Positions 2,527 through 18,256 of a stretch of 18,256 nt of DNA are shown one piece after another. Within the stretch, counting starts at the first letter, position 1. Each line of letters begins with the position of its first letter. The stretch is from a virus. Under the pieces are notes generated by a model. It saw nothing but the letters and a program-made list of their open reading frames with translations. It ran no database searches and was not told the origin of the DNA. The stretch is taken from the UHGV virus genome UHGV-0117054; one strand, given 5' to 3'. The translations under genes and the position numbers were made by a program.

Positions 2527-2635
2527 TCGGCATTCACTCCGGGCACCTCTTGAGATCAATAAATCAGCAGTTGCCGTTGCGCCTGTGCTATTCCTGGGTA
2601 GGATGTTTCCATTTTTACCAATCGGGAATAGGGAT

Positions 2636-2974
2636 ATGAAGAAGTTAGCTTTGGCATTGCTTGCAGTGGTTTCTTTGGGGGCTTCTGCGTCAAATACGTA
2701 CACAAAAGAACAACTCAACTCAATGGCTGCATCTGGGAGTTACCCAGAACAGGAATCGCCAGTTACTAAGAGCGTTGAGTCAGTGTCATTTGAGAGGTGT
2801 AAGCAAGACACCTACGGCGTTTATAACCAAGTAGCTGGCAATTATCCGGCACAAGAAGTTGTCAACACCGGCATCCTTTACATTGTTAAAATTTGGACCA
2901 ATGACGGCGTGATCATGGTTTCATGTTCAGGGCCTGATGGTAAAAAACTTGTCACTCAATCCTCCTACAAGTAA
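2636..2974 (+). CDS. Secreted/periplasmic hypothetical protein with cleavable signal peptide (moron)
   Basis: N-terminus MKKLALALLAVVSLGASA|SN is a classic Sec signal peptide with an AxA site. The mature part has two Cys. The segment is AT-rich compared with flanking tail genes. Confidence 0.55.
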   Translation: MKKLALALLAVVSLGASASNTYTKEQLNSMAASGSYPEQESPVTKSVESVSFERCKQDTYGVYNQVAGNYPAQEVVNTGILYIVKIWTNDGVIMVSCSGPDGKKLVTQSSYK

Positions 2975-2984
2975 GGGAATATCT

Positions 2985-3317
2985 ATGAGCGAACAAGAGC
3001 AACTGCAGAGTTTGAGTGAAGAGGTGGCCAGAGCATACCTGCGCCACCTGGAAGCAACCACTGGCGGAAATACGGTTACTTACGATGGTGTGACAAGATC
3101 AATTACTCTCGAAGAACTAGTTTTTGGCCTAATAGGGGTCGCACATTTCAATGCTAAAAACCACCCAAACGACGAGATACTAAAAGACCCATATAAACAT
3201 CTCTCGCACATGATTGATATTTTATCAAAGCCATATGTGATAACTGAGTTCGGTCTAAAAGTTATTGAACATATGAATGAAATTTCCATTCATAAACAGC
3301 GTGGGGTGTTGATGTGA
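2985..3317 (+). CDS. Hypothetical cytoplasmic protein (moron)
   Basis: 110-aa ORF with ATG start and SD aaggga upstream. Low GC, no signal peptide. Its 3' end overlaps the next gene (GTG/ATGTGA junction). Confidence 0.5.
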   Translation: MSEQEQLQSLSEEVARAYLRHLEATTGGNTVTYDGVTRSITLEELVFGLIGVAHFNAKNHPNDEILKDPYKHLSHMIDILSKPYVITEFGLKVIEHMNEISIHKQRGVLM

Positions 3318-3691
3318 AAACGGGTGCAATGTGCTTATCTTTGCTGTTTTTAATTTCTGGTTGCGATGATGGCGGAAAAGGAAGTGTAGCTAACGGGGCC
3401 GATACAGCTATAACAATGTTCAAATCATCTATGAGTGAGGGTGATCATCCACCCTTCGAATATCAGCGCCTCGTATTCAAACCAGATCAGCAAAACTCAA
3501 GCAAGGTAATAAGTGGATGGGTTTGCGGAGATGGAAGCATGAAGCGTGATGATAAGACCTTTAACTTTAAAGTTAGAGGTCATGTTATTAAGTCAGAAGA
3601 TATTTCATATGTTGGTGACATAGCCGCACTGCTTTCTGATACTGAAATGGTCAAATACGACATTCTTTACAATAAGAATTGCAAAGAATAA
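3314..3691 (+). CDS. Lipoprotein with predicted inner-membrane retention (moron); start GTG 3314 or ATG 3329
   Basis: N-terminus MKTGAMCLSLLFLISGC carries a lipobox (ISGC). The residue after the lipid-modified Cys is Asp (CDD), the +2 Asp Lol-avoidance signal known in E. coli. Low GC. Confidence 0.6.
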   Translation: MKTGAMCLSLLFLISGCDDGGKGSVANGADTAITMFKSSMSEGDHPPFEYQRLVFKPDQQNSSKVISGWVCGDGSMKRDDKTFNFKVRGHVIKSEDISYVGDIAALLSDTEMVKYDILYNKNCKE

Positions 3692-3711
3692 GCAGGAAGA
3701 AATCTTAACAA

Positions 3712-3737
3712 ACCTCGCCTCGGCGGGGTTTTTTATT
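3712..3737 (+). terminator. Intrinsic terminator ending the moron cluster, just upstream of the tape measure gene
   Basis: cctcgcc-tc-ggcgggg hairpin followed by ttttttatt. The tape measure SD (ggag) follows immediately. Confidence 0.55.
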
Positions 3738-3751
3738 GCCCGGAGATAGCA

Positions 3752-6688
3752 ATGGCAAAAGAACAAAATGCTGGCAGCGTCGTCTATACGGTAAGCGCTG
3801 AGATCGAGCCCCTACTGATTGCTGGTAAGCAGGCCATTGATGTTCTGGATAAGCTGGATGCAGCCGCTCAACAATCTGGCAAGGGAATGGATAGCCTGGA
3901 CCAGAGTACATCCCATACTGGATCGGCGTTCAACGAACTGGCTGGATATGCCAATTCAATGGATAACCAACTGCGTAAACTGAACACCAATGTAAGCGGC
4001 ATAGCTCGCGCCATGGAAGAAGCTCGCAGCGGTACCGGGGGAGCAAACAGCGAATTCAATCGCGCTGAATCTATCATTGAGGCATTGGGTAACCAGTTGG
4101 CAATACTGGACGAGGCGCAGGAGAATGGTGCTCGCAGCGCTGCAGTGCTGGCAGCCCAGTTGCGCGCTGGCTCTAAAGCCACCGACGAAGAGAAGCAGAA
4201 GATCGGCGAGCTTACTGGTCGCTTATATGACATGAAGACTGGCGTTGAAAATGGCGCAAAAGGCACTGGCAGCTGGAAGTCCAGCATGCAGCAGGCTGGT
4301 TACCAGGTTCAGGACTTCATTATTCAGGTGCAGGGAGGTCAATCTGCGCTGGTGGCTTTCGCTCAGCAGGGCTCTCAGCTTGCTGGCGCATTCGGTCCGG
4401 GCGGTGCGATTGTCGGTTCTATCATTGCGCTGAGCTCGGTTATCGCTGGTGTGCTGATTACTTCGCTCAATGGCGGAAAGAACGCCATGGATGCTCTTAA
4501 GAGCGCTGCTGAAACCATGGATAAGGTTATTACCATTTCACAAAATGGTGTGGCCGCCCTCTCTGATAAATATGCCGCTCTGGCACAGACAAATATTGCT
4601 GTGGCAACCTTGATGAAAAAGCAGGCCGAGCTGGAATTGCAGGCTGCTCTATCAAACGTCTCAAAAGAAGTACAAAAGGCATCGAGTGACTTCATTAGCT
4701 TTGGTGATTCATTGATGTCTTCGCTGGGCGGTGGATATGCCAGCGTAAAATTATTTAATGACTATTTGTCCACGCTAAATATAACCACTAACGATTTCAG
4801 TGAGGCATGGAAGCAGGCAGCTGCCAGCGGGCAGGATGGTCAGTCAACGATGAACTCTATGGTGGCAACTGTTGCGGCCCTGTCTACCAAGTTCGATATT
4901 AGCGATCAGAAAGCTTTTGAGTTTGCTAAGCAACTTTCTGACATAGCGAAAACACCAACTGATGAAAAACTTAAGGCATTGGTTGTGACTCTGCAGGATG
5001 TCGGGAATGGGCAATCTTCTGGCGCGGCTAAGGCCCGGGAATATGCCAAAAGTCTCTTAACCATCATGGAGACAAGCACAGACGCTACTTCACGCCTTAA
5101 GGCTCTGAAAGAGATGACTGATAGCCTGACTTCCAGCCAGGATAAGGCGCTAAAAATCGCTCAGCAGGAGCTGTTTATTGCGCGGCAAACTGGTGAGGCT
5201 CAAATGAAAGCCAAGGCTTGGCGAGATGCCGAAACGCAGGGGCTGAAAGAGGGGACGGAAGCATTCAGGAAATACTACAACGTCAAGCTGGCAACCTATA
5301 AACAGGATGCGGCTAACGCTAACAGCAAGAAGGGAGCCAGTAGCGCTGCGTCAGAAGCTAAGAAGTTAGCCAATCAGCAAGAAACGGTGGCGCAAAAGCT
5401 TGAGAATTTGAGGCAGCAATCAGAGCTGACAGCCAAGTCGACGCAGCAACTCAGCCGCGAGCAGGCCATCCTCACTGCCCAGCAATCCTTGGGTGCAGCA
5501 GCAACTCAAAAAGACCTCGATCTTGCCGGACAGTATGCCGCTGCAAAATGGGATACGGCCAATGCGCTCAAAGCGCAGGCCGCCGCCGAGAAGCTCCTGC
5601 CGGAAGCGCGCGAAAACGCCAGCTATAAGCAGGATGTTGAGGATCTGAATACTGCCCTGACCGCGAAGAAAATCAGCCAGGAACAATACAACGAGACCGC
5701 AGAGCGCCTGGAGGCAACGCACCAGAACAACCTCGCCAAAATCCGTGCGCAGCAGGCAGTAACACCGCAGCAGGAGGCCGCTGGCGGCGTCGACCCGGTG
5801 CAGCAGCTGGCGAATGAGAACGCGCGTAAGCTGGCGCTCATTCAGCAGTACGAGCAGCAGGGCGTATTAACCCACCAGAATGCTTTGGCGCTGCGAGCTG
5901 CTGCTGATACAGAGTACGAGCAGGCGCGCATCGCTGCACAGTGGGAGATTTACCGTAATCAGAGCACTGGCAATGAACTGCTGGCCACCTCGCTGGAAGG
6001 CCTGCAGAGCGGGGCAACCAATGCCCTCACTGGATTAATCAACGGCACCCAGAGCCTGCAGGAGGCAATGGCTAACGTTGGCTCGACCATCATCAACAGC
6101 GTGATCGGCAGCCTCGTAGAAATGGGCATGCAGTGGGTTAAAAATCAGGTGATGGGGCAGGCAGCGGCGGCAGCCTCTCTGGCATCTACCATGGCGCAGG
6201 CAACTGCTGCAGCATCAGCTTGGGCGCCGGCAGCAATGAGTGCGTCGATCGCCACGTACGGCAGCGCCGCTGCTGTTGGTCAATCGGCTTATGCAGCCTC
6301 TCTTCTGTCAGCCAAGGGGTTAGCTGTCGCCGGTGCCCGCGAACACGGCGGGCCGGTCTCGGCCAGCTCCATGTACCGTGTGGGCGAAGGTGGCAAACCT
6401 GAGATTTTCAAAGCCAGCAATGGCAGCCAGTACATGATCCCCGGCGATAACGGTCGCGTCATCAGTAACCGCGATATTGGCGGTAGTGGCGGGGGGGCGT
6501 TCAATTACAGCCCGGTCATTCAGGTTAACGGGGATCCGACTGAGCAGCAGTTGGCCATGCTCGAGGCCGCGGTCAAGCGCGGCGCGCAGCAGGGCTATGC
6601 CATGGCCGTCAGCGACGTCGCCAGCGGCAAAGGAAAACTCTCCAACGCTCTGACCAACAACTTCAACACCAGTCAACGCCTCACATAA
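3752..6688 (+). CDS. Tail tape measure protein
   Basis: 978 aa, Ala/Gln/Glu-rich with long predicted coiled-coil stretches. It has an internal hydrophobic Gly-rich segment (…AFAQQGSQLAGAFGPGGAIVGSIIALSSVIAGVLITSL…). The C-terminal region (…YRVGEGGKPEIF…) resembles the lambda gpH C-terminus as I recall it. Confidence 0.9.
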   Translation: MAKEQNAGSVVYTVSAEIEPLLIAGKQAIDVLDKLDAAAQQSGKGMDSLDQSTSHTGSAFNELAGYANSMDNQLRKLNTNVSGIARAMEEARSGTGGANSEFNRAESIIEALGNQLAILDEAQENGARSAAVLAAQLRAGSKATDEEKQKIGELTGRLYDMKTGVENGAKGTGSWKSSMQQAGYQVQDFIIQVQGGQSALVAFAQQGSQLAGAFGPGGAIVGSIIALSSVIAGVLITSLNGGKNAMDALKSAAETMDKVITISQNGVAALSDKYAALAQTNIAVATLMKKQAELELQAALSNVSKEVQKASSDFISFGDSLMSSLGGGYASVKLFNDYLSTLNITTNDFSEAWKQAAASGQDGQSTMNSMVATVAALSTKFDISDQKAFEFAKQLSDIAKTPTDEKLKALVVTLQDVGNGQSSGAAKAREYAKSLLTIMETSTDATSRLKALKEMTDSLTSSQDKALKIAQQELFIARQTGEAQMKAKAWRDAETQGLKEGTEAFRKYYNVKLATYKQDAANANSKKGASSAASEAKKLANQQETVAQKLENLRQQSELTAKSTQQLSREQAILTAQQSLGAAATQKDLDLAGQYAAAKWDTANALKAQAAAEKLLPEARENASYKQDVEDLNTALTAKKISQEQYNETAERLEATHQNNLAKIRAQQAVTPQQEAAGGVDPVQQLANENARKLALIQQYEQQGVLTHQNALALRAAADTEYEQARIAAQWEIYRNQSTGNELLATSLEGLQSGATNALTGLINGTQSLQEAMANVGSTIINSVIGSLVEMGMQWVKNQVMGQAAAAASLASTMAQATAAASAWAPAAMSASIATYGSAAAVGQSAYAASLLSAKGLAVAGAREHGGPVSASSMYRVGEGGKPEIFKASNGSQYMIPGDNGRVISNRDIGGSGGGAFNYSPVIQVNGDPTEQQLAMLEAAVKRGAQQGYAMAVSDVASGKGKLSNALTNNFNTSQRLT

Positions 6689-7708: not shown

Positions 7709-8263
7709 ATGCTCGGCTCTCTCAGGGAAATTGTCTTCTCCGTTGCAAAGCATGAAGTTGGACACTGGCTCGCATGGCATTGCTATGGCGGATCTTCGTC
7801 TGGCATCGAAGTAAAAATTCTATCGATTAATGGGCGACACACAGGTGCTTTTATCCCTGATATGGAGTGGGAAGTATCTACTCTGGATGAAGCCTGTAAA
7901 TATGTAAAAGCCAGGCTGCTGTGCCTACACGCTGGTATTTATGCGGAATCTTTCCTCGGTGATATTTATGACGCAGAGCGCATAAGCCGTGAGTTTAACC
8001 ACCTCGGCGCAGCAGCATCTGACTTTCACCGTAGTATTGAGCTTGCCTGGGCTTACTGCAACCTGACAGGCCGCTCAGATCAATACAGCGCGGTTTGTAG
8101 CGAAATAGACCAGGAGGCAGCCAGTCTGGTGGCGGATAATTTTGAATTTATTAAGCACGCAGCGAAGGCGATATCAGACATGGCGGCTTACGAAGGTCAG
8201 CTTATTAAGCTTCCTGACTATGAACTGCAATCCATGTATGAAAAATTTAAACGTCAGAGGTGA
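7709..8263 (+). CDS. Standalone FtsH-like (M41 family) zinc metallopeptidase domain protein, no AAA+ or membrane module
   Basis: HEVGH (HExxH) at residues 15-19. Downstream blocks line up with the E. coli FtsH protease domain as I recall it: EVKILSINGRHTGAF vs KVTIIPRGRALGVTF; LHAGIYAESFLG vs LYGGRLAEEIIYG; LGAAASDF vs STGASNDI; IDQEAASLVADNFEFIKHAAKAISDMAAYEGQL vs [34 protein letters not shown]. Strong SD (gaaggagga), lower GC than flanking tail genes. Confidence 0.65.
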   Translation: MLGSLREIVFSVAKHEVGHWLAWHCYGGSSSGIEVKILSINGRHTGAFIPDMEWEVSTLDEACKYVKARLLCLHAGIYAESFLGDIYDAERISREFNHLGAAASDFHRSIELAWAYCNLTGRSDQYSAVCSEIDQEAASLVADNFEFIKHAAKAISDMAAYEGQLIKLPDYELQSMYEKFKRQR

Positions 8264-8266
8264 TGA

Positions 8267-8437
8267 ATGGAAAAATTAACGCTTTCGGTAAAAGTTGATA
8301 CCACATCATTAGATGAGGCTATCGAGAAGGTCAGGACCTTAAAAAAAGAATTAAGGGAGCTTGGCCTGCCTTACTTCACCGGCAATCCTCTGGCTGGATA
8401 CCAGCCACAACAAGAAGAAAAAGCCACCAACCAATAA
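8267..8437 (+). CDS. Small hypothetical protein (56 aa) co-located with the M41 peptidase gene
   Basis: ATG 4 nt after the peptidase stop, SD-like gagg upstream. Translation MEKLTLSVKVDTTSLDEAIEKVRTLKKELRELGLPYFTGNPLAGYQPQQEEKATNQ. It ends at the terminator hairpin. Not in the supplied ORF track because it is under 60 aa. Confidence 0.3.
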   Translation: MEKLTLSVKVDTTSLDEAIEKVRTLKKELRELGLPYFTGNPLAGYQPQQEEKATNQ

Positions 8438-8460
8438 GCCGCTTGAAGCGGCTTTTTTTA
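8436..8460 (+). terminator. Intrinsic terminator closing the peptidase moron
   Basis: aagccgc-ttgaa-gcggctt hairpin followed by a run of seven T. It sits between the small ORF stop and the NlpC/P60 gene start. Confidence 0.5.
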
Positions 8461-8470
8461 TGAGGCGCCC

Positions 8471-8851
8471 ATGTTCAATCCCGATAAATACCGTTCTGTC
8501 GAGTGGCAGAAGGGCGGACGCGCTTACCCCGCGCTGGACTGCTTTGGCATCGTCAATGAAATCAGGCGTGACCTTGGCCTGGCTCCGTGGCCTGATTTTG
8601 CCGGGGTTACGAAGGATGATAACGGCCTCGACCGGGAGGCGCGCGGACTGATGGCTGGCCTGACGCGATGTGAGCCTGCCCCGGGCGCGGGTATCGCCTG
8701 TTATTCAGGCTCTGTGGTGACGCACGTTGCCATCGTTGTTGAGATTGATGGCCAGCTTCGCGCCGCGGAGTGCAATCCCCGCACTAACGTAACCTTCCTG
8801 CCGCTGGCGCGGTTTGCGCGCCGCTTTGTTCGCGTGGAGTATTACCAGTGA
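8471..8851 (+). CDS. NlpC/P60-family tail-associated peptidase (lambda gpK C-terminal-domain-like)
   Basis: 126 aa. ALDCFGIV supplies a candidate catalytic Cys and VTHVAIVV a candidate His, spaced as in NlpC/P60 papain-like folds. It sits immediately upstream of the J-like gene with a GTGA stop/start overlap. Confidence 0.65.
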   Translation: MFNPDKYRSVEWQKGGRAYPALDCFGIVNEIRRDLGLAPWPDFAGVTKDDNGLDREARGLMAGLTRCEPAPGAGIACYSGSVVTHVAIVVEIDGQLRAAECNPRTNVTFLPLARFARRFVRVEYYQ

Positions 8852-11800
8852 CGATCCGAATCTATCCCTCACGCCTGCCCGGCGAGCCGCTGGAAAAGCA
8901 CGAACACGAAACGATGACCCTCAGCGCCTGGTTTGCGCGGAACGTGAAGGACTGGGCACCGGATCAGCAGCATCCGGTTGCGGTTGAAATCGACTGTGTC
9001 CCCGTCCCGGCGTCAGAGTGGCCACTGTGCGTTATCAAACGCGAAACCGACGTCAGGATGTATCCGGTGCCGTACGGTACCGGCGCAGAAATCGCGATCT
9101 GGGTTGCCGTCAGCGTAGCCGTTGCCTCTGCTGCGTACAGCATCTACATGATGAGCACAATGTCTCAGGCTGGCGGCGGCGGTGCCCAGGCGGCCAGCGG
9201 CGACCAGATTGACCTCAACCCGGCAAAAGCGAACGCGGCGAAGCTGGGAGACCCCATCCGTGAAATCTTTGGAAAATATCGCGTCTGGCCTGATTACGTC
9301 GTGCAGCCGGTAAGCCGGTTCGTGAACGAGACCAGCATGGAAACCAGCATGTTCCTGTGCGTGGGTGTCGGCGACATGGTGATTAACCAGTCAGATATCC
9401 GGATCGGTAATACGCCGATCTCCGCGTTTGGTACCGACGTGCGTTACACCCTCTACCCGCCTGGCGCCACGGTATCCGGCGATACGCGCACTGAAAACTG
9501 GTTCAATTCACCAGAGGTCGGGAATACCGGTTCCGGTACTGCCGGGCTGGACCTTGGCTCAAGCGGACCGGAGACGGTCAGCATTATCGCTGATGCGCTG
9601 GTCGTGTCAGGGAACTCCATCACGCTGGTTGACGTATCGTCGTCTGGCGATGAGGAGATCCCGCCGTCGTGGACCGTCGGAACGGTGATCACCGTACTGG
9701 CCCCAAATTCGTATACGGTCGTGTCGTCCGGCGGTTACAGCATGATTTATGGCGGGATAGAGGAACTTGCACCTTATGTAGGCATGCCGGTGACGCTGAA
9801 CTATAACGGCAATGACTACGATCTGGTGATTGCCAGCTATGCCCCGGGCGTTCCGGCAGTGCCGGGGGTGGGTGGGAGTGCCGCAACCATAACTGCCAGC
9901 GCCGCGCCGACCACCTACGACTTTAGCACCGCGCCTGTGACGTTCAGCATCAGCTGGCAGGGCACGACTTACCCGGTATCACTGGTCACCAACTACGTCA
10001 CCATGTCAGGCCTGGTTTCCTCGATCACCTCCCAGCTCGCAGGCTCTGGCCTGGTAGCGCGCGATAACAGTGGGCGGCTTGAAATCGGCGAGGCCAGTAG
10101 CCCATATGCTGGCGGGTCCATCACCAACAGCCCGTTACCCGTTGCTGTTTTCGGTGATGCTCCGGTTAATACGGCAGGCGTGAAATCAACGGGCGGCACG
10201 ACGGAGGTCAGGGCGCACATTACCCTGGCTTACAACAGCGCCACCGGTACGCCATTCACAGGGCTGCCAGAGGGAATTCAGCGCTTTTCTCTGGGGCTTG
10301 CCGGCAATCAGTTCCGGATCACCGATGTGGACAGCCAGACCATCACCGTAGAGCGGTTGACTGTCACCACAGGTCCTGGCGGCGAGACGATCACGACGCC
10401 GGATCCATCGTGGCCTGGCTTCACCGAGCGTACGCTGCTGGATGCGACCGTGACGGGTGTCAGTGACGATTACGAATGGGTTGGCCCGTTCCTGGCCTGC
10501 CCGGACGGCGAAACGCTGGACGCATTCGAGGTGAACATCAACTTCCAGAGCGGCCTGGTGCGTTATACCGATAAAGGTAACAAGCGCTCAATGCCCGTTC
10601 GCCTGGTGATCCAGTATCGCAAAGTTGGAACCACCGCCTGGCAGCAGCAGTCCCCGTTCTATTCCCGCAGTACTGAAAACCAGATCGGCTTTACACATCG
10701 CTACAGCGTGTCGCCTGGTCAGTATGAGATCCGGATGCGCAGAACCGAACCGGTTAAGGGCGGCAGCACGCGTGACCAGGTTTTCTGGCAGGCGCTGCGC
10801 TCCCGGCTGAGCAAGCGACCCACTAAGTACGACGGTGTCACTACCATGGCGCTGACCGTGCGCACTGGTAACCGCCTGGCAGCCATGTCCGATCGCCGTA
10901 TAAGCGTCACGCCAACCCGGCTTTACAGCGGCGGCAGAACTGCACGGAGCATCAGCGGCGCGCTTTACCATGTACTCGAGTCGCTTGGGTTCACGACCAG
11001 CCAGATTGACACAGCGGCGATTGATGCTCTGGAGCAAACATACTGGACGCCCCGCGGTGAGAAATTCGACTGGGCGAGCGGCGAGAGCAAGTCCGCACTC
11101 GAGGTGCTGCAGAAAATCACTAACGCAGGGATGGGGTATTTCCTGCTGTCTGATGGACTGGCGTCTGCCGGCAGGGAAGGCATTAAACCCTGGGTAGGCA
11201 TGATTACCCCGCAGGAAACCACCGAGGAGCTGCAGACTGCCTTTAAAGCCCCATCGCAGGACGATTACGACGGTGTGGACGTGACCTATATCAACGGCAC
11301 CACCTGGGCAGAAGAAACCGTGCAGTGTCGCCTGTCTGGCAACCCAACGCCGTTGAAAATCGAGAGCTACACGCTGGATGGTGTTCTGAATGAAGACCGC
11401 GCCTACCGCATCGGCATGCGCCGGTTGCTGGGCTACCAGTTGCAGCGCCTGCAGCACACCACCTCGACCGAGATGGATGCGCTCTGTTATGAGTTCATGG
11501 ATCGTATTGTGCTGGCAGATGATATCCCCGGCAGCGAGACGCTGAGTTGCCTGATTACCGATATGACGTATGACAGCAGCAAAATCACCATGACGCTTAG
11601 TGAGGCCCCGGACTGGTCGTTCCAAAGCCCGCGCGTGATTATCCGCCATCAGGATGGCAGGGCATCAGCCATGCTGGTACCGACACGCATTGACGACTTC
11701 ACCATCTCGGTGCCGTACAGCGCCGTGTTGGAGCCGGAATTGTGGGCTATGAACGACGCGTACATTGAACCACCGCGCCTGCTGTTCTGCTCATCTGTTC

Positions 11801-11931
11801 GGGTGCCGTATGACGCTCTGGTCGGCGAAATATCACCGGGTAACGATGGGATAAGCCAGGTTACGGCTATTCAGTATCACCCAGGAAAGTACGCCTACGA
11901 CGACGCCACATACCCCGGCGACGCCGCTTAA
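8848..11931 (+). CDS. Host specificity / central tail fiber protein (lambda gpJ-like) with an N-terminal gpI-like region
   Basis: 1027 aa with GTG start. The central region (…SPGQYEIRMRRTEPVKGGSTRDQVFWQALRSRL…) resembles the NIRMRRMTP block of lambda J as I recall it. The first ~170 aa have a small domain, then a hydrophobic helix (AEIAIWVAVSVAVASAAYSIYMM) and a Gly-rich linker, like lambda gpI. Confidence 0.85.
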   Translation: MTIRIYPSRLPGEPLEKHEHETMTLSAWFARNVKDWAPDQQHPVAVEIDCVPVPASEWPLCVIKRETDVRMYPVPYGTGAEIAIWVAVSVAVASAAYSIYMMSTMSQAGGGGAQAASGDQIDLNPAKANAAKLGDPIREIFGKYRVWPDYVVQPVSRFVNETSMETSMFLCVGVGDMVINQSDIRIGNTPISAFGTDVRYTLYPPGATVSGDTRTENWFNSPEVGNTGSGTAGLDLGSSGPETVSIIADALVVSGNSITLVDVSSSGDEEIPPSWTVGTVITVLAPNSYTVVSSGGYSMIYGGIEELAPYVGMPVTLNYNGNDYDLVIASYAPGVPAVPGVGGSAATITASAAPTTYDFSTAPVTFSISWQGTTYPVSLVTNYVTMSGLVSSITSQLAGSGLVARDNSGRLEIGEASSPYAGGSITNSPLPVAVFGDAPVNTAGVKSTGGTTEVRAHITLAYNSATGTPFTGLPEGIQRFSLGLAGNQFRITDVDSQTITVERLTVTTGPGGETITTPDPSWPGFTERTLLDATVTGVSDDYEWVGPFLACPDGETLDAFEVNINFQSGLVRYTDKGNKRSMPVRLVIQYRKVGTTAWQQQSPFYSRSTENQIGFTHRYSVSPGQYEIRMRRTEPVKGGSTRDQVFWQALRSRLSKRPTKYDGVTTMALTVRTGNRLAAMSDRRISVTPTRLYSGGRTARSISGALYHVLESLGFTTSQIDTAAIDALEQTYWTPRGEKFDWASGESKSALEVLQKITNAGMGYFLLSDGLASAGREGIKPWVGMITPQETTEELQTAFKAPSQDDYDGVDVTYINGTTWAEETVQCRLSGNPTPLKIESYTLDGVLNEDRAYRIGMRRLLGYQLQRLQHTTSTEMDALCYEFMDRIVLADDIPGSETLSCLITDMTYDSSKITMTLSEAPDWSFQSPRVIIRHQDGRASAMLVPTRIDDFTISVPYSAVLEPELWAMNDAYIEPPRLLFCSSVRVPYDALVGEISPGNDGISQVTAIQYHPGKYAYDDATYPGDAA

Positions 11932-11950: not shown

Positions 11951-11973
11951 ACCCGCTTCGGCGGGTTTTTTTA
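11951..11973 (+). terminator. Intrinsic terminator between J-like gene and tailspike gene
   Basis: acccgc-ttcg-gcgggt hairpin followed by tttttttat. The tailspike SD (ggag) follows directly. Confidence 0.55.
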
Positions 11974-11987
11974 TGCCCGGAGCTAGC

Positions 11988-14432
11988 ATGACCACATATG
12001 CCACGAATAACCCGATAGGGTCCATGGATCCGAAGGACCTTTTCGATAACGCCCAGAATCTGGACTTTGCGGTAAACGATATTACCAAAGCCATCTGGAA
12101 GGACCGTTTTGGGAGGGACAGAAAAACATACTGGGGCATGGAGCAGGCCTTTTCAGCTCAACTTCTAAGCCAGAAGCAGATTGGAGAAGCGCAACTTCAG
12201 AACCAAAAGGAAGAGCTGGATGCGCAGTTACTGTCGCAAGAGCAGCGGTTCAGTTATTTCATTATGAACTCTGGCTACAAATTTGTTGGAGAATACACAG
12301 ATGGGCCTCTAACCGTTACTGACTATAACCAGTTGATTCGCTATCAGAATGAGCTTTATAAGTTAAAGGCCGACACAGCGGTTCCATTTACGACAACCGG
12401 CAAGAATGCCACCTCATGGGTCAATGATTTCGCTCATTTTATCAACGTTGCCGATGCGGCATTAAGGCAGCAAATTGGGGATCCTTACGGGGCTGAAAAA
12501 TACCCAGAACTTCAATTGGCACGTTGGCGTGATGAGGGGGACGTTCGTGGCTGGGGAGCCATTGGTGATGGGTTGAATGATGACACTGATGCCATTTTAT
12601 TATGCTTTGCTGATGCTAAATTACGAGGAGGCCGGACAAAAATCAAGTTCCAGCATGGAACCTACCTTGTTCGAGGAACAAGCCTAATAATCGACTTTCC
12701 AAACGTCTTATTAGAGGGAAATTGGGCAAAACTTAGATTGGTCGACAGTCCGACAGTAATTCAGGGGCCAGTTCTAAAGGTTGCGCAATATGGCAACACG
12801 TCTGTTCGAGGCACGGTAGAAAATGTAACCATCAAAAACCTTGAAATTGATGGCAACAAGCTGAACCAGGTCCAAACCATGAACACGGGAGGGGATGCGA
12901 ACAATCCAGGCTTTGTATCAGAAGACGTGGTGAATCTGCATGTAGAAAATGTTATCTCCCGTAACTGTGACGGATACGGATTTCTCTTCGCTGGCTCTAA
13001 TCTTCCACACCGTAAAGGCGCTTACTTCAAAAACTGCTGGGCACACGGCAACAACGTCGACGGTTTTGACATCAAGGCTGGTTTCAATCATGTCACCCTA
13101 GATAGCTGTCGTTCATGGGATAATGGCTATGCGCCGATGGTTGAACTTCGCTCCGGCATGGGTATCGACATTCGCGGCAAGAACGTCACTCTCCTGAACT
13201 GTGTGGCAGGTGACGAAGGTAGTAATTACGCAGGTAACTTCCGTATCCGTGAAAATGCTCAGGCTGGCATCTCGCTGTTTGGTTGCCACAGCCACAATAG
13301 CCCGGATGGTACTTATGGTTTTATGTGCATTGGTGGTGGTAATACAAATATTTCCTTAGTTAGCTGCACATCCACCAACGATGGCACGTCACTGAAGCAT
13401 GAGCGTGGACATGTCACAGCAGTGGGATTCCGGTCATGGAAACCTCGGCTATTAAGTGTGCTGCAATACCCTTCTCAATTTGTGTTGAGCACACTGACGG
13501 CAGCAGCCACGTTTACTGCCTTTGGTGTATCAGTAACCATTCTCCCGAGCGATTATCTTAGTGCAACCGTGGGGTCTGAAATCAAGATCCCTACTAACAC
13601 CGGTACGATTTACCTACTGGTGAACGAGGCAGTTTCATCGACGCTGGTGTGCACGGTGCTGCGCGGAAATCTGGGGACGGCTGCGGTGGGCGCAAGCATC
13701 ACCACGGTATCGACAGGCAGCCTGACCATAGATGGCGGTATTTCTTATCAGTCTGCCAGCGACGCCATGCAGTTTGCCTCTACGTTACAGACTCTGACGG
13801 ACAGCTCGATGCCAGTAACCATAAATGGCTTTATCATAGAGGCACCAATCCGCTACGGGGTGAACTTCCAGGGTGGTGATGTGAGTTTCTTTGGCGGCGC
13901 AATTCGTAACTGTGGCAAAGGGTCATCCTCCCCTGGATTTTTCGTCGGCAATGCGGCTACTGCTGAATCAACATTCCGGTTGGACAGCGTATTCATGGGG
14001 AATGATGACAAATCATTCACGCAGTCAGCCGGCCTTCAGTTCCAGTCAACAAGCCTGGCGAAAGGGAGCGTTAGAGCGTGTAAATTCGCCGATAATGCCA
14101 ACTCGCCAGTCATTGGCTCGCCATCTTCTGGTGTGCGGTTTGCAGACAATATCGGCTACACCAACGAGGGTACATTCTCTACAACAATTGATGTGACAAC
14201 TGTTGGGGTGAAAACATTCTCAATTCCGCATGGGCTAAGCAAAGCACCTTCTGGTAAAGATGTGCAACTGACCATCCAGCGGTCTGGGGCGGCGAATGAC
14301 TACGTTCTCTCCACTCCGATGATTACCGGAGCAAGCTCTACAATTATTTCTGGAAGGGTGTCCGTACTCACGGCTAGCGCAACCACAGGTGAAGCCGCAA
14401 CAGTAAACGCATTCATCAGCGCCAACCCATAG
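11988..14432 (+). CDS. Tailspike / receptor-binding protein with pectate-lyase-like parallel beta-helix (putative polysaccharide depolymerase); start ATG 11988 preferred over 11973
   Basis: GDVRGWGAIGDGLNDDTDAI matches the GAxGDGxTDDTxAI signature that opens the beta-helix in phage depolymerases. Asn/Gly-rich beta-helix rungs follow (NCDGYGFLFAGSN, NCWAHGNNVDGFDIKAGFN, GKNVTLLNCVAGDEGSNYAGNF, CTSTNDGT). ggag lies 6 nt upstream of ATG 11988. GC is intermediate. Confidence 0.8.
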   Translation: MTTYATNNPIGSMDPKDLFDNAQNLDFAVNDITKAIWKDRFGRDRKTYWGMEQAFSAQLLSQKQIGEAQLQNQKEELDAQLLSQEQRFSYFIMNSGYKFVGEYTDGPLTVTDYNQLIRYQNELYKLKADTAVPFTTTGKNATSWVNDFAHFINVADAALRQQIGDPYGAEKYPELQLARWRDEGDVRGWGAIGDGLNDDTDAILLCFADAKLRGGRTKIKFQHGTYLVRGTSLIIDFPNVLLEGNWAKLRLVDSPTVIQGPVLKVAQYGNTSVRGTVENVTIKNLEIDGNKLNQVQTMNTGGDANNPGFVSEDVVNLHVENVISRNCDGYGFLFAGSNLPHRKGAYFKNCWAHGNNVDGFDIKAGFNHVTLDSCRSWDNGYAPMVELRSGMGIDIRGKNVTLLNCVAGDEGSNYAGNFRIRENAQAGISLFGCHSHNSPDGTYGFMCIGGGNTNISLVSCTSTNDGTSLKHERGHVTAVGFRSWKPRLLSVLQYPSQFVLSTLTAAATFTAFGVSVTILPSDYLSATVGSEIKIPTNTGTIYLLVNEAVSSTLVCTVLRGNLGTAAVGASITTVSTGSLTIDGGISYQSASDAMQFASTLQTLTDSSMPVTINGFIIEAPIRYGVNFQGGDVSFFGGAIRNCGKGSSSPGFFVGNAATAESTFRLDSVFMGNDDKSFTQSAGLQFQSTSLAKGSVRACKFADNANSPVIGSPSSGVRFADNIGYTNEGTFSTTIDVTTVGVKTFSIPHGLSKAPSGKDVQLTIQRSGAANDYVLSTPMITGASSTIISGRVSVLTASATTGEAATVNAFISANP

Positions 14433-14539
14433 GGCTCAGGAGGAAGTGGAACGAGATCGAACCAGCGCAGGAAAAGCTGGTAGCTGATTCATATGTTGTG
14501 GGTGAAAAATACGGAATCAGATGCAAGGAGGCTTTAGTG

Positions 14540-14632
14540 ATGGAGGCTACTCTTCATCGCCGTAATCATCAAAGGTTACTGTCGCAGTTTGAGGCTCTGG
14601 CTGAACGAGTGGGAAATCTAGAAGCAAAGTAG
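14540..14632 (+). CDS. Possible 30-aa small ORF with strong RBS (may be a remnant)
   Basis: aaggagg sits 8 nt upstream of the ATG. Translation MEATLHRRNHQRLLSQFEALAERVGNLEAK. No other support. Confidence 0.2.
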   Translation: MEATLHRRNHQRLLSQFEALAERVGNLEAK

Positions 14633-14796
14633 CTTTCTGATGCACTAATCGTCAATCCTACCCAAACAGAGAGGGTGCTTTCGCTACGTCATATTCGCAT
14701 CTTTTGGTGGCGCAAGAGCACCCTCAATCCTGCATTTGTAAAATTCACTACTGATATCAAAATTAGTGGTTAGACCCCAAAACCACACACAAATCA

Positions 14797-14825
14797 TTGA
14801 CCCGTCCCAGCAAGTATTGCACAAT
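14797..14825 (+). promoter_or_regulatory. Candidate sigma70 promoter for the AsnB-like cargo gene
   Basis: TTGACC, a 17-nt spacer, then CACAAT, about 70 nt upstream of the ATG at 14898, in an AT-rich intergenic region. Confidence 0.3.
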
Positions 14826-14897
14826 CTTGGTTGTTTACTCTGTTAACCAAATAGTTATCAACTTTAAATATTGCCAATTATCTTGCGCGGGAATTAA

Positions 14898-16727
14898 ATG
14901 ATAAACTTTATTGTTTTAAATGGAAAAAGCGAGTCTGTTAAGAAATTATACGAGACAGCGCAGCAGGCCCTAAAAAGGAACTTAACATTTAAGCCAGTAG
15001 AGGTGGCTAATAAAATATCTGGTAGCGGAGCTTGGGCATATACAGCATGTGGCAATGCGGAAGGCGAAATATCAAAAAGAATAACATCTAAGCAAAGCGG
15101 CGTATGCCTGATAAATGGCCCTGTTTTAAGGATGTGTGATAGCTATGATGTCTCAGATGCCGCACTTGATGCCTCCACCAAAAACGATGCGGAATACATG
15201 TTTGACAATATTTCCGGGTCTTACAACTTCGTTTCAATAACCTCTAAGAATGGCCTCCTTGCTTTCGGCGATTTCTCAGGCACCTGTCCTATTTATTACA
15301 CAATAATTGATGGCGTAACTTGCGTAAGTAACCGGGCATCTGCATTGCATGAACTGCGCGGGAATAGTAAATATAATATTTCTTCTTTGAGCTGGTTAAT
15401 TGGGCATGCCAATATATTTGGCAATGAGTCACCTTTTGAATGCGTGTATTCAATTACAGCTGGTAGCTATTTAAAGTCACCACTTGGTTCAACAACAGTA
15501 AACATCAATAAATTTAAGAATCAGATATGGCCTTCAAATGACGATGCTCAGTATCTGAACGACCTCTCAGGTGATGATTGGGATTTGATAGTAGATGAGT
15601 TGGTGAAAAACTTTAAGGCTGCAAGTGAAAACATTCCCGGCGAACTCCGTTTATCACTCACCGGTGGTAAGGACTCTCGCCTTGTCCTTGCGCTGGCATT
15701 GGGTGCAGGATTCAAAGACAGGATCACCACATTTACGAACGGCCCGGAAGGCAGCCCAGAGATAAGCTGTGCACAGAACATCGCCAACAAAATCGGCGTT
15801 AAGCACGTCGCTAACGTTAAGGCTCCACAAGTTAAAGCTCAGGATTTTGCTAATTCATGGGAAAAACTTAACTGGCATTCCTACAGAATGGAAAGTTATA
15901 TTTGCCCATGGGATGGAGCAACAGCTGAACGCACCATCAAAAATATAACGTCCGATATGACTGGCTTTGGCGGCGAGCTATATCGCGGACCCGGCGGACA
16001 CGCCAAGCAGTTTAAAAACCTGTCCTTTATGGACAATAAAGATGCAATTCTTTCTAAGTTCATAAACTACCATCAGAAGATGGATCCATTAAACATTCTC
16101 TCCAGTTTGTATAAAAACGCTCAAATAGGTTGGTTCTACGGCTGGCTTGAGGAGAATATTAAATCTGTAAGGTTTGATGTTTTACCTGAGAAGTTCTTCG
16201 TAGAAAACCGTCTTTCCAATTGGAACGGCCCTCTTGCTCAGAACGTCACAGGCAGAATTAAACTGATGCCACTTCTCTCTCCTAAAGTTGCGCGTTTGGT
16301 ATTCAAGCTCAGCCCGGAGGCCAGGAACAAAGAATTGTTCCACTACAGCGTCATGGCAAAGCTGGCTCCTGAATTAGTTTCTCTGCCATTTTTGAATGCG
16401 ACATGGGATAAATCATTGCAGGGTAGATTTGGCCTTGATATCGCAGATGCTCCTTATGATAGCGGGGTTAAATTCACGCCAAGGTCTGTGCAAGCATGGC
16501 AGGCTCAATTTGTCGAAGGTCAGCGAGAAGAAATCGTGCACTTGCTTGAAAGAGCCGCCGAATATACAAACATCAGAGAGATATTTGACGTCGATAAATT
16601 ATGCGAGTACGTCCGGGAAAAGGAAGGGATGAACACCATAGAAATCAAAACTATCCTCTCCTCAATTGCTGTTGCCATTACCTTGCTGAATGATCAGGAA
16701 AGCGTAGAGGACCTTGGCCAGGTGTAA
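14898..16727 (+). CDS. Asparagine synthetase (AsnB) family amidoligase-like protein; N-terminal domain lacks the Cys nucleophile
   Basis: 609 aa. PP-loop SLTGGKDS at residues ~254-260 (AsnB has SGGLDS near 234-239). TGFGGELYRG matches the AsnB GEGxDExFGGY block and GRIKLMPLLSP the E-x-R-x-PFLD block. FGDFSGTCPIYY matches the RDxxGxKPLYY motif of the N-terminal domain. It starts MINF…, not MC…. GC is about 38-40%. Confidence 0.75.
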   Translation: MINFIVLNGKSESVKKLYETAQQALKRNLTFKPVEVANKISGSGAWAYTACGNAEGEISKRITSKQSGVCLINGPVLRMCDSYDVSDAALDASTKNDAEYMFDNISGSYNFVSITSKNGLLAFGDFSGTCPIYYTIIDGVTCVSNRASALHELRGNSKYNISSLSWLIGHANIFGNESPFECVYSITAGSYLKSPLGSTTVNINKFKNQIWPSNDDAQYLNDLSGDDWDLIVDELVKNFKAASENIPGELRLSLTGGKDSRLVLALALGAGFKDRITTFTNGPEGSPEISCAQNIANKIGVKHVANVKAPQVKAQDFANSWEKLNWHSYRMESYICPWDGATAERTIKNITSDMTGFGGELYRGPGGHAKQFKNLSFMDNKDAILSKFINYHQKMDPLNILSSLYKNAQIGWFYGWLEENIKSVRFDVLPEKFFVENRLSNWNGPLAQNVTGRIKLMPLLSPKVARLVFKLSPEARNKELFHYSVMAKLAPELVSLPFLNATWDKSLQGRFGLDIADAPYDSGVKFTPRSVQAWQAQFVEGQREEIVHLLERAAEYTNIREIFDVDKLCEYVREKEGMNTIEIKTILSSIAVAITLLNDQESVEDLGQV

Positions 16728-16761: not shown

Positions 16762-16819
16762 TGATCTGCACCTCCTTTAAAACTACTGTATATAAAAACA
16801 GTAAAAGGAGTGCAGATCA
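16762..16819. repeat. Inverted repeat bracketing the SOS box and the start of the downstream ORF
   Basis: tgatctgcac at 16762-16771 and its reverse complement gtgcagatca at 16810-16819, extended by tcc/gga with a one-base bulge. The arms flank the LexA box, and the right arm overlaps the GTG at 16810. Confidence 0.4.
16784..16803. promoter_or_regulatory. LexA operator (SOS box) in an AT-rich promoter region
   Basis: TACTGTATATAAAAACAGTA is a perfect CTGT-N8-ACAG palindrome with an AT-only spacer. From memory it matches the strong E. coli umuDC operator. It lies directly upstream of the 16810 and 17058 ORFs. Confidence 0.7.
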
Positions 16820-17058
16820 TACCCCGCCAATCAGACATTCACAGCGCATTTGTCGCTGCAGTACAGCAAAACCCAAAGGGTTATCAGTGCCTTCATACGA
16901 ACGACTTCATCCGTGAGTTGCGCGCGAGAAACTGGCATTTCAGCCAGGTCGACGCCAACGAGTGGATCCAGCGCTATCAAGAGTTCTTTGTCGACAAGAC
17001 GCCTGACCACAGTGAAAACCGTCTCTGGATGCTACGTAACATGGGGAGGGTTCTGTAA
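16810..17058 (+). CDS. Hypothetical 82-aa protein, first ORF downstream of the SOS box (start uncertain)
   Basis: GTG start with the SD too close (aaaaggag immediately before it). Its stop overlaps the ATG of the UmuD'-like gene (TAATG). No recognisable motifs. Confidence 0.3.
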   Translation: MQIIPRQSDIHSAFVAAVQQNPKGYQCLHTNDFIRELRARNWHFSQVDANEWIQRYQEFFVDKTPDHSENRLWMLRNMGRVL

Positions 17059-17453
17059 TGGGCTTCCCTTCGCCGGCTGGCGACTATGTAGAGCAGCGGT
17101 TAACTCCGGAGCGAATCTGCGGTGTTGGCGTCGACACTCGCATCCTGGAAACCTCATCCGGCTTTGCCGTTATCGAGCCGTGCACCAGGCTGGTACAGAA
17201 TCAGGTTCTGCTGATTTTATCTGGCGGCAGAACGCAGTTTGCCCGGGTAATGGGTAGGGCATTAATCACTGATGATGGTGAAGCGATCGAAGGGGAGGAG
17301 GCGGAGGAAGTTGAGGTGCTGGGGCGCGTGACGTTCTTCATCAACAGCGCGCTACAGGATGACAGGGTGGGTGATGGGTGGCATTACGCCACCTTTTCAT
17401 CAAGCCAGTCCGCCCACCACTGCATCATTTCTCTGCGCTTATCGAGATACTGA
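17058..17453 (+). CDS. UmuD'-like (peptidase S24-fold) protein, natively leaderless and likely catalytically degenerate
   Basis: N-terminus MGFPSPAGDYVEQR matches the UmuD segment right after the Cys24-Gly25 cleavage site (CGFPSPAADYVEQR), so the ORF begins where processed UmuD' begins. An in-frame stop lies 18 nt upstream. The SGDSM serine motif and the catalytic KK region are not recognisable. GGAGG sits 7 nt before the ATG. The last ~23 codons overlap the integrase 3' end. Confidence 0.6.
   Translation: MGFPSPAGDYVEQRLTPERICGVGVDTRILETSSGFAVIEPCTRLVQNQVLLILSGGRTQFARVMGRALITDDGEAIEGEEAEEVEVLGRVTFFINSALQDDRVGDGWHYATFSSSQSAHHCIISLRLSRY
17377..17398 (+). terminator. Hairpin plus T-tract at the convergent junction with the integrase (possible + strand terminator)
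   Basis: ggtggc-attac-gccacc stem-loop followed by tttt. It lies inside the C-terminal extension of the UmuD'-like ORF and over the integrase stop codon. Confidence 0.35.
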
Positions 17454-18256
17454 GCATGGTTGTAAATCCCGCGCACAGATCCGCCGTTGGCATGTGCCAG
17501 TTGCACTTCAATAGCATCAGCAGGCCATTCGTGCTCGTTCATAATCGTGCTGAATTCATGCCTGAATCCGTGACCGCTTTCCAGACCCTCATAGCCGATT
17601 TGTTTGATCACAAGCAATACCGCGTTCTCGCAGATTGGCTTCTTCTTATCGTTGCGCCCGGCAAAAACAAACTCTGATACTGGTTTAGTGATTGAGCTTA
17701 GCGTAGTGAGAAGTTCAACCACCTGGTCTGACATCGGGACCACATGAATTTTGCGTCCCTTCATCACACTGGCGTCGATGGTGATAATCCTGTTTTCAAA
17801 ATCGACGTTCTTCCATAGCATGGAACGAAGCTCTTTCGTTCTTAGGGCTGTGTAGCGTAAAACTTTGGTCGCAATGAGCGATACGATACTTCCTGAAAAT
17901 GTTGCCAGTGCTTTGTTGAATGCCGGGATCTGGTCTGCAGGAAGAAACGGGAAGTTCTTCTTGCGGTATCCCTTCATGGCGTCAGCAAGGTCAGGTGCCG
18001 GGTTATATTTAGCCCTTCCGGTGACAATAGCGTAACGGAAAACCTCGCCGCATCTTCTGCGTGCTTTGTTGGCTCGCTCCATTGCACCGCGATCTTCAAA
18101 TCTGCGGATTACTTCCAGCAGTTGCATCGGCTCAATATCCTGAATCTCAAGGCCGCCGATGATGGGTAAAATGTCGTCATCAAACATTTTTGCAAGTTCA
18201 GTTGCATAGCCTACTGACCAGACTTGCTTCTTGTGCTCGTACCATTCCTTGTAAAT
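17384..18256 (-). CDS. int: Tyrosine recombinase / phage integrase (P4-type), N-terminus beyond the window edge
   Basis: The reverse frame stays open to the window end (…IYKEWYEHKKQVWSVGYATELAKMFDDD…). The C-terminal catalytic region has HGFRHEFST (HxxR) and VRGIYNHAQYLD (catalytic Tyr), ending …QWWADWLDEKVA. Confidence 0.9.
   Translation of the reverse strand: MYKEWYEHKKQVWSVGYATELAKMFDDDILPIIGGLEIQDIEPMQLLEVIRRFEDRGAMERANKARRRCGEVFRYAIVTGRAKYNPAPDLADAMKGYRKKNFPFLPADQIPAFNKALATFSGSIVSLIATKVLRYTALRTKELRSMLWKNVDFENRIITIDASVMKGRKIHVVPMSDQVVELLTTLSSITKPVSEFVFAGRNDKKKPICENAVLLVIKQIGYEGLESGHGFRHEFSTIMNEHEWPADAIEVQLAHANGGSVRGIYNHAQYLDKRREMMQWWADWLDEKVA

Follow-up and report, generated by a model that had tools for sequence, protein, structure and literature searches.

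Phages are known to convert the serotype of their hosts by glucosylation, O-acetylation and polymerase swaps. In argW coliphages, the seroconversion genes are found near int-att, between the tailspike and the integrase (Kapi1 preprint). Among bacterial enzymes, the AsnB-type WbpS, WbqG and PGN_1234 make uronamides in glycans and are glutamine-dependent (PMC7468200), and the Bordetella genes wbmC, wbmI and wbmZ are candidates for glutamine-dependent amidotransferases (PMC2615507). Here we analysed an 18,256-nucleotide (nt) stretch of UHGV virus genome UHGV-0117054 (the window), focusing on a gene at positions 14898..16727 (+ strand) that encodes a putative amidoligase of 609 amino acids (aa). 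On the basis of comparative genomics and predicted structure, this gene, whose family is uncharacterised, would form part of a cassette for lysogenic conversion that uses a new class of enzyme and a new chemistry. Searches of the literature retrieved no account of an AsnB-like converter in a phage or of this amidoligase family, and no paper describing an ATP-dependent carboxylate amidoligase as a phage converter.

Predicted fold and motifs of a divergent AsnB-like protein

The gene is an intact open reading frame (ORF). A preliminary description of the window, made from the sequence alone, had placed its start at 14797; this is the first base of the -35 element of a promoter-like site, and the ORF starts at 14898. 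Its product is a very divergent member of the AsnB superfamily, and kinship with AsnB was weak at the level of sequence. Pfam Asn_synthase (PF00733) reached 20.6 bits (gathering score, 21; E 3.9e-4), covering residues 254-327 only, while TIGR01536 scored 36.9 bits against a cut-off of 267.1 (E 2.2e-9; residues 92-327). Searching the PDB with a 55-sequence family profile retrieved human ASNS (1.5e-8), CarA (3e-8), AsnB (3e-5) and beta-lactam synthetase (beta-LS; 1e-4). The Asn_synthase domain assumed in the preliminary description therefore fell just under the profile cut-off, and it was the AlphaFold2 (AF2) model and its Foldseek matches that yielded the two-domain AsnB fold.

The predicted fold is firm. 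The AF2 model has a predicted local distance difference test (pLDDT) score of 93.3 and a predicted template modelling (pTM) score of 0.92, and Foldseek matched it to TsnB9, beta-LS, ASNS, CarA and AsnB (E 1e-12 to 1e-15) over 530-675 columns at 11-16% identity. A degenerate Ntn-like N-domain spans about residues 1-215 and a PP-loop synthetase domain about residues 225-609. Neither a transmembrane segment nor a signal peptide was predicted.

The PP-loop, an ATP pyrophosphatase motif, is encoded at 15657..15680 (+; residues 254-261, LTGGKDSR) and aligns to SGGLDS of AsnB. Within the 55 family members, [TS]GGKDSR is invariant (G256, G257, D259, S260 and R261). A second motif, GFGGELYR (15963..15986, +; residues 356-363), is at least 90% conserved and is the probable Mg/pyrophosphate loop of the synthetase site, with an ambiguous correspondence to AsnB SGEGSDEVFGGY in hhalign. 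At residue 2, where glutamine-dependent enzymes would have Cys, the family has Ile (50/55), Leu (3) or Asn (2) and in no case Cys; an N-terminal MC is likewise absent from 29 of 29 more distant relatives. Alignment to E. coli AsnB by hhalign indicated that C1 is replaced by Ile, that R61 and N73-G74 are retained (AsnB R49 and N74), that E76 is replaced by Pro75 (50/55) and that the D98 position is variable. The glutaminase pocket thus appears degenerate, as C1 and E76 are substituted and D98 is unconserved, and this, together with Ile2, suggests that the N-domain, like those of beta-LS and CarA, has lost its glutaminase function. The AsnB K449 position is also variable in the family, in a C-terminal half over which hhalign is uncertain. 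Taken from these alignments, the adenylating site would be kept but remodelled. The earlier proposal of a Cys-less AsnB-type enzyme with a PP-loop is therefore borne out by the AF2 fold, the Foldseek matches, the invariant PP-loop and Ile2.

As the characterised Cys-less AsnB homologues all form intramolecular amides, and as beta-LS and CarA are among the top structural matches, the protein could be a lactam or macrolactam former (of the lasso cyclase, beta-lactam synthetase or carbapenam synthetase type) making a toxin or bacteriocin for the lysogen. A macrolactam cyclase model, NF033561, does match (E 1.4e-6), although at 27.2 bits against a cut-off of 300, and genes for a B-protease, a precursor and an exporter are absent from about 20 annotated loci. 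We regard this explanation as highly improbable. A 30-codon ORF upstream of the gene (14540-14632, MEATLHRRNHQRLLSQFEALAERVGNLEAK), preceded by a strong AAGGAGG Shine-Dalgarno sequence, had seemed to offer a lasso precursor; this candidate was rejected, as similarity to a P22-like phage (L068, below) identifies it as the leftover C-terminus of a tailspike.

Family members reside in capsule and O-polysaccharide loci

The homologue search identified 77 relatives, mostly of 595-626 aa and nearly all unnamed or annotated as 'hypothetical'. Scanning 1.84e9 cluster representatives with HMMER returned 398 matches at E<=1e-30 and 3,737 at E<=1e-10. Members of the 100% cluster are labelled E. coli, Shigella sonnei, Leclercia and 'Caudoviricetes sp.'. 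The gene is rare in the collections searched. It was found in none of 5,426 complete E. coli genomes (megablast, blastn), which rules out a kps-locus copy at >=65% nt identity in these genomes; tblastn with the protein found it in none of 50,697 phage records, and a search with the homologue from locus L064 found none in 72,556 plasmids. IMG/VR contains a single locus with the gene (L068). A 69%-identical copy is present in a P2-like prophage of Aeromonas media (L009), where it lies between an S24 (CI-type) repressor and an integrase; an unrelated type of phage has thus captured the gene independently. A further 69%-identical copy was found on a 2.7-kb contig from an Acholeplasmataceae metagenome-assembled genome (MAG) bin (L022, JAAYVM010000031.1), probably a mis-binned proteobacterial or phage fragment.

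The chromosomal homologues gave independent backing to the earlier idea of polysaccharide modification, as those with 28-56% identity are located inside capsule or O-polysaccharide loci. In Burkholderia anthina (56% identity), the order is Poly_export, ABC2_membrane, ABC_tran, a 980-aa glycosyltransferase (GT) of type GT2/GT4, the family gene and Hexapep. Loci L064 and L065 (53%; the L064 source is not E. coli) contain KpsD, DUF8374, BNR_4, a 1186-aa GT2/GT2/GT4 protein, the family gene, Hexapep, rmlB-D-A-C, ugd and KpsC/S, and L016 contains rmlCBDA, a 1101-aa GT, ALGX, GT2, hexapep and the family gene. In Pseudomonas sp. 51_B (L017), the homologue sits in a GT-rich O-antigen locus with WbsX and has a UDP-sugar dehydrogenase directly 5' of it. 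Elsewhere, the neighbours include a Wzm/Wzt-like transporter, TylF, GTs and a sulfatase (L013 and L015), LytR_cpsA_psr (L014), a 907-aa GT2/GT4 protein (L066), and hexapep, a beta-helix protein, sulfotransferases and GT1 (L023, L024 and L026). One homologue lies among insertion sequence elements, adjoining BNR_4. Overall, these neighbourhoods suggest that the home of the family is ABC-transporter-type capsule and O-polysaccharide loci. As ABC-transporter pathways complete the polymer in the cytoplasm, a soluble enzyme could reach it. The presence of ugd beside two homologues is suggestive of a uronic-acid target.

In the chromosomal loci, the order is often a large GT2/GT4, the family gene and a hexapeptide acetyltransferase. 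The last of these, CatB/Vat-like and 245-255 aa long, is orthologous in L010 (Burkholderia), L023 (a Paracoccus MAG) and L064 (52-57% identity) and, when L023 and L064 are compared, is more conserved than the amidoligase. The two proteins may act on the same substituent, and the phages acquired the amidoligase only, without this partner. Two other neighbours were observed: large BNR_4 proteins (519 aa in L012, 978 aa in L064) recur beside the family gene in two unrelated loci, and the DUF8374 protein of L064 has a weak match to Campylobacter O-methyl-phosphoramidate transferases.

These contexts also bear on whether the gene is a moron for anti-phage defence or superinfection exclusion unrelated to glycans, in which a PP-loop ATPase would modify a nucleotide, tRNA or phage protein, or deplete ATP. 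Prophage-end cargo slots often house defence genes, the position of the Aeromonas copy next to a CI-type repressor would suit such a role, there are weak PP-loop/QueC-like matches, and the low G+C (GC) content marks the gene as foreign. Conversely, PADLOC-DB 2.0 returned no family at E<=0.1, the gene stands singly without a partner, its chromosomal homologues are in polysaccharide loci and not in defence islands, and it is near-absent from the phage collections, with only the IMG/VR locus to set against the 0/50,697 phage records. The defence alternative raised in the preliminary description consequently found no match in PADLOC and no defence-island context, and we consider it quite unlikely.

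The gene appears to travel with a tailspike receptor-binding domain

Directly 5' of the gene is a tailspike gene (11973..14432, +) encoding 819 aa from its first ATG (814 aa as called elsewhere), with an N-terminal anchor followed by a predicted right-handed beta-helix. Its Pfam matches (Beta_helix, Pect-lyase_RHGA_epim and Pel9A-like) are all under cut-off, and its AF2 model, built from a 4-sequence alignment, has a pLDDT of 45. Phage relatives were found for the N-terminal 170-230 aa only. The receptor-binding part is represented by 4 clusters, all of >=80% identity, among 5.8e9 proteins, and nothing beyond the N-terminal anchor matched complete E. coli genomes or phage records.

The same rare 814-aa tailspike was found directly 5' of the gene in 8 of the 8 E. 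coli places shown and in the diverged relative L063, and the pair is present in prophages at four or more different chromosomal sites. Between prophages, nt identity over positions 12661-16727 (~4.1 kb) is 99.6-100%, where the J genes are 88-91% and the spike N-anchors 94.6-99.6% identical; for the flanks, the range is 88-95%. In L063, the two genes have diverged together (80% aa identity for the spike and 82% for the amidoligase), with saturated synonymous sites and a proportion of non-synonymous differences (pN) of about 0.11-0.12. These identities suggest that the receptor-binding part of the spike and the amidoligase gene are inherited as one exchange cassette, comprising these two elements and the intergenic region (12661..16727, +).

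A 98%-identical copy on the IMG/VR contig L068 provided a second view of the junction. L068 is a true P22-like phage, as judged by Inj_translocase and Head_binding, and its 828-aa tailspike (Head_binding/S74) ends in a Peptidase_S74 chaperone, the only domain that it has in common with known phages. The similarity of the window to L068 begins at 14526, which corresponds to the last 107 nt of the L068 tailspike gene, so that 14526..14632 (+) represents the remnant of a P22-type tailspike 3' end with its Peptidase_S74 chaperone. This scar indicates that the tailspike 5' of the cargo gene was swapped by recombination and, together with the L068 copy, that the gene therefore moved between tailspike modules by recombination. 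In such moves, it would appear always to land immediately after a depolymerase-type spike. The P22-like setting proposed earlier consequently holds for L068 and not for the window, whose phage is a siphovirus.

Such a junction could also have arisen if the gene were a passenger without benefit, co-transferred by chance during tailspike recombination, or if it served the lytic cycle. The gene is co-oriented with the late tail operon, no terminator is predicted on the + strand after the spike, its promoter is not significant and the tailspike scar is itself a recombination junction, all of which would fit. The pattern of substitution points the other way. The ratio of non-synonymous to synonymous substitution (dN/dS) is 0.058 against the 98% copy, pN is 0.11 at saturated dS against the 82% copy, and 45 member sequences retain an uninterrupted frame, indicating strong purifying selection on the gene. 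A promoter-like island and a ribosome-binding site (RBS) are conserved in L063, and the P2-like Aeromonas prophage captured the gene independently. We consider the passenger explanation distinctly improbable.

The gene occupies a cargo slot at the prophage end

The window represents the right arm of a prophage, that of a temperate siphovirus, and encodes a major tail protein, a tape measure and TipJ. From ~16723 onwards, where the amidoligase gene has its stop codon, the sequence is homologous to other argW prophages. What these prophages carry in the corresponding slot upholds the cargo position between tailspike and integrase given in the preliminary description: 1008S19, a TipJ-carrying siphovirus whose fibre differs, has a hexapeptide acyltransferase there, the P22-like PK12 has a GT2 glycosyltransferase, and further argW prophages have small ORFs. 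The 1008S19 acyltransferase was compared with the hexapeptide partner of the capsule loci and is not its orthologue.

Sequence L005, which is 99.9% identical to the window, runs on into yfdC-mlaA-fadL. In L001 and L005, a 385-aa integrase is followed by yfdC, and in sister prophages the argW tRNA gene sits between intS and yfdC. The amidoligase gene therefore lies inside the prophage and outside any host operon, as had been supposed, the order being tailspike, gene, UmuD-like fragment, intS and argW/yfdC. The GC content of the gene is 43.3% (GC3 44%), whereas the J gene has 59% and the window as a whole 52%; the first estimate of ~38-40% was too low.

A candidate sigma-70 promoter, TTGACC-17 nt-CACAAT, is located at 14797..14825 (+) and scored 9/12 in a consensus scan. 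The L063 leader is 75% identical to that of the window, with the -35 to -10 block and the RBS/start region standing out as conserved islands. This conservation in a diverged relative is no more than suggestive of an own promoter, and in the scan the match proposed earlier was no better than chance. Terminator prediction gave nothing on the + strand in the interval from the spike to the gene. An imperfect inverted repeat with 14-nt arms (GAGGGTGCTTTCGC / GCAAGAGCACCCTC) and a 27-nt spacer lies at 14671-14725, after the scar and ahead of the candidate promoter. As no T-run follows, it is not a typical terminator. The repeat is common to L068 and unaligned in L063.

Proposed function in lysogenic conversion

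Taking the fold, the chromosomal contexts and the linkage to the tailspike together, we propose that the product is a cytoplasmic ATP-dependent enzyme that amidates a polysaccharide carboxylate, encoded by a lysogenic-conversion gene; we put the chances of this at about even. The enzyme would use ATP to adenylate a carboxylate, most plausibly that of a uronic-acid residue in a capsule or O-polysaccharide, or in a nucleotide-sugar precursor, and the polymer concerned would be made by an ABC-transporter pathway. An amine not derived from glutamine, either free ammonia or an amino acid or amino alcohol, would then resolve the acyl-adenylate to give a neutral amide. A family copy from capsule or O-polysaccharide loci would have been captured by temperate enterobacterial phages and placed right after the tailspike. 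In the lysogen, the gene would be transcribed from a promoter of its own, and the amidoligase would modify the surface polysaccharide and neutralise the charge of the receptor glycan. The converted polysaccharide would thereby escape binding or cutting by the phage's own tailspike and by related phages, an exclusion phenotype accompanied by a change of antigen.

Several observations weigh against this proposal. The 98% copy in L068 follows an unrelated tailspike, so that pairing with the spike is not exclusive, and the Aeromonas P2-like prophage carries its copy without a tailspike. No one obvious capsule is common to the E. coli, Shigella sonnei and Leclercia hosts by which the sequences are labelled. 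We infer the polysaccharide-carboxylate substrate from genomic context, in which a UDP-sugar dehydrogenase is close by in only 2 of ~10 chromosomal cases (L017 and L064). In a pooled Pfam count over 117 neighbour ORFs of distant relatives, glycan enrichment was modest (Sulfotransfer_3 x5, GT2 x4), a weakly informative count given that the neighbours were crudely called, include high-GC shadow ORFs and surround remote homologues. The equivalent of AsnB K449 is unconserved in the family, so the active site is unlike that of characterised members. At the level of expression, the promoter-like site at 14797-14825 does not exceed shuffle expectation (5 found versus 5.0 expected). Finally, when three candidate genes of Kapi1 were each over-expressed, including hyp24 from the analogous slot, the lipopolysaccharide (LPS) was unchanged (Kapi1 preprint).

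The lack of a shared capsule among the hosts leads to a neighbouring explanation, in which the same ATP-dependent amidation has another envelope target: peptidoglycan (meso-diaminopimelate or iso-Glu, as with AsnB1/LtsA), the N-acetylmannosaminuronic acid of enterobacterial common antigen (ECA), the glucuronic acid (GlcA) of colanic acid, or the LPS core or lipid A. E. coli, Shigella sonnei and Leclercia have ECA, peptidoglycan and colanic acid in common, but no single K or O antigen. Amidation of carboxylates in the cell wall by AsnB homologues is known (PMC7476776, PMC3885529). However, no chromosomal homologue was seen beside mur, wec or wca genes, and the contexts are serotype-specific capsule and O-polysaccharide loci with ABC transporters. 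The tight co-transfer with a very rare and highly specific receptor-binding part also argues for a strain-specific glycan. We judge this alternative unlikely. If it were true, sensitivity to endolysin or to phages using the affected receptor would be altered in any host, whatever its capsule type.

A narrower version of the capsule proposal concerns K54 and K96. In K54, Thr and Ser are amide-linked to GlcA, so that capsule GlcA amidated with amino acids does occur in E. coli. The amidoligase could be a sugar-carboxylate:amino-acid ligase that adds Ser/Thr-type residues to capsule GlcA, with the cassette as a mobile determinant switching a K96-type capsule, or a similar ABC-transporter capsule that contains GlcA, to an amidated chemotype, although we see this as a long shot. 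The Thr/Ser substituent is reported as the K54-exclusive difference on a GlcA-rhamnose backbone, and the gene clusters of both are treated as one 'K54/K96' kps type (PMC10433991; PMC13410964). The amidating enzyme is not named in these papers. Locus L064 has the rml, ugd and kps content expected for a K54/K96-like polymer, plus the family gene. If true, an amino-acid ligase would explain why K54 and K96 have one kps locus type, and no capsule converter carried by a phage would before have been seen to work through carboxyl amidation and to travel together with the depolymerase domain that matches it.

If conversion by amidation of a polysaccharide carboxylate is correct, carboxylate neutralisation would be a new conversion chemistry, changing charge, antigenicity, recognition by complement and phages, and susceptibility to depolymerases. 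The analysis also opens a first way into the function of this Cys-less AsnB family, which is uncharacterised, comprises ~400 clusters and occurs in the capsule loci of many phyla, and it makes the family a candidate class for the enzymes that add amide substituents to uronic acids in K and O antigens. The locus also illustrates neatly how a receptor-binding domain can move together with a gene that putatively modifies the receptor, the two forming a single 4-kb cassette. The evidence throughout is genomic and from structural prediction, and its value is that of a sharply testable hypothesis rather than a demonstrated function.

Other features of the window

The window encodes, in this order, a tail completion protein, the major tail protein, DUF6246 and the tape measure (3752-6688), and minor tail proteins and TipJ (8848-11931) lie between the tape measure and the tailspike. 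3' of the amidoligase gene, the right-end module shared with other prophages opens with an 82-aa ORF (16810..17058, +; phrog_3893), followed by a UmuD/HumD-like fragment (17058..17453, +; phrog_3469, UmuD-like) of which NF051876 covers the first 21 aa only. This fragment overlaps the 3' end of the integrase gene and, in relatives and sister prophages, is annotated as an incomplete pseudogene. The IntS-type tyrosine integrase (17384..18256, -; Pfam Phage_integrase 2e-39) extends past the window end and marks the prophage end beside the tRNA-Arg gene argW.

Two further regions of lower GC content were observed. One is an island at 7709-8470 (46-49% GC) within the tail module, with ORFs at 7709-8263 (184 aa, phrog_36675, no Pfam match) and, beside it, a small one at 8361-8651. 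It is present in L002, L004 and L005 and absent from L001, L007 and L008. We therefore count it as a further moron, likewise optional, situated where the minor tail genes adjoin TipJ. The other, at 2501-4000 (42-46% GC), contains three ORFs of ~126 aa (2585-2974, 2937-3317 and 3314-3691) 5' of the tape measure, the first two of which overlap by 38 nt in the usual position of tail-assembly-chaperone frameshift pairs.

Comparison with known systems

The preliminary description had named WbpS-type amidotransferases, lasso cyclases and beta-lactam synthetases as possible relatives; judged by hidden Markov models or contexts, the protein belongs to none of these classes. The likeness to WbpS, WbqG and PGN_1234 (TIGR03108, eps_aminotran_1) lies in the two-domain AsnB fold, the PP-loop and the placement of the genes in glycan loci, which is true of the chromosomal homologues, the window copy being in a prophage. 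WbpS-class enzymes carry an N-terminal Cys and are glutamine-dependent, whereas the amidoligase family has Ile2 and a degenerate glutamine pocket. TIGR03108 had no match to the window protein at E<=0.1 and scored 28.6 against a cut-off of 816.9 for the 770-aa relative from L017. No enzyme of the WbpS/WbqG/PGN_1234 type is known from a phage.

Beta-LS and CarA resemble the amidoligase in lacking the Cys, in keeping the adenylating PP-loop domain and in having a vestigial N-domain (Foldseek E 1e-13 to 1e-15). They differ in sequence (11-16% identity) and form intramolecular lactams on small molecules in antibiotic clusters; no clavam or carbapenem biosynthetic cluster was encountered around amidoligase genes, whose contexts are prophages or polysaccharide loci. 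The lasso and other macrolactam cyclases (McjC type) are likewise Cys-less AsnB-like adenylating enzymes of similar length, but the NF033561 score is far under cut-off, and none of the loci has a precursor peptide, a B protease or an exporter in its neighbourhood. The best Foldseek match was TsnB9 (PDB 7ylz; query-normalised template modelling score, TMq, 0.62-0.64; E 1e-15), a hydroxyamidotransferase of the polyketide (trichostatin) pathway that moves a non-ammonia nitrogen nucleophile to an adenylated carboxylate and retains a working glutaminase-type domain. Here too identity is low (11%), and the amidoligase family is without the N-terminal Cys of glutamine-dependent AsnB enzymes.

Among phage genes, the closest counterparts are the conversion genes P22 gtrABC, Sf6 oac, Kapi1 hyp24 and Hf4s. 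Like these, the amidoligase gene is a low-GC moron with a candidate promoter in the slot between the depolymerase and int-att. Converters described so far act as membrane glucosyl- or acetyltransferases, or else as GTs, and the putative amidoligase would differ from them as an ATP-dependent carboxylate enzyme.

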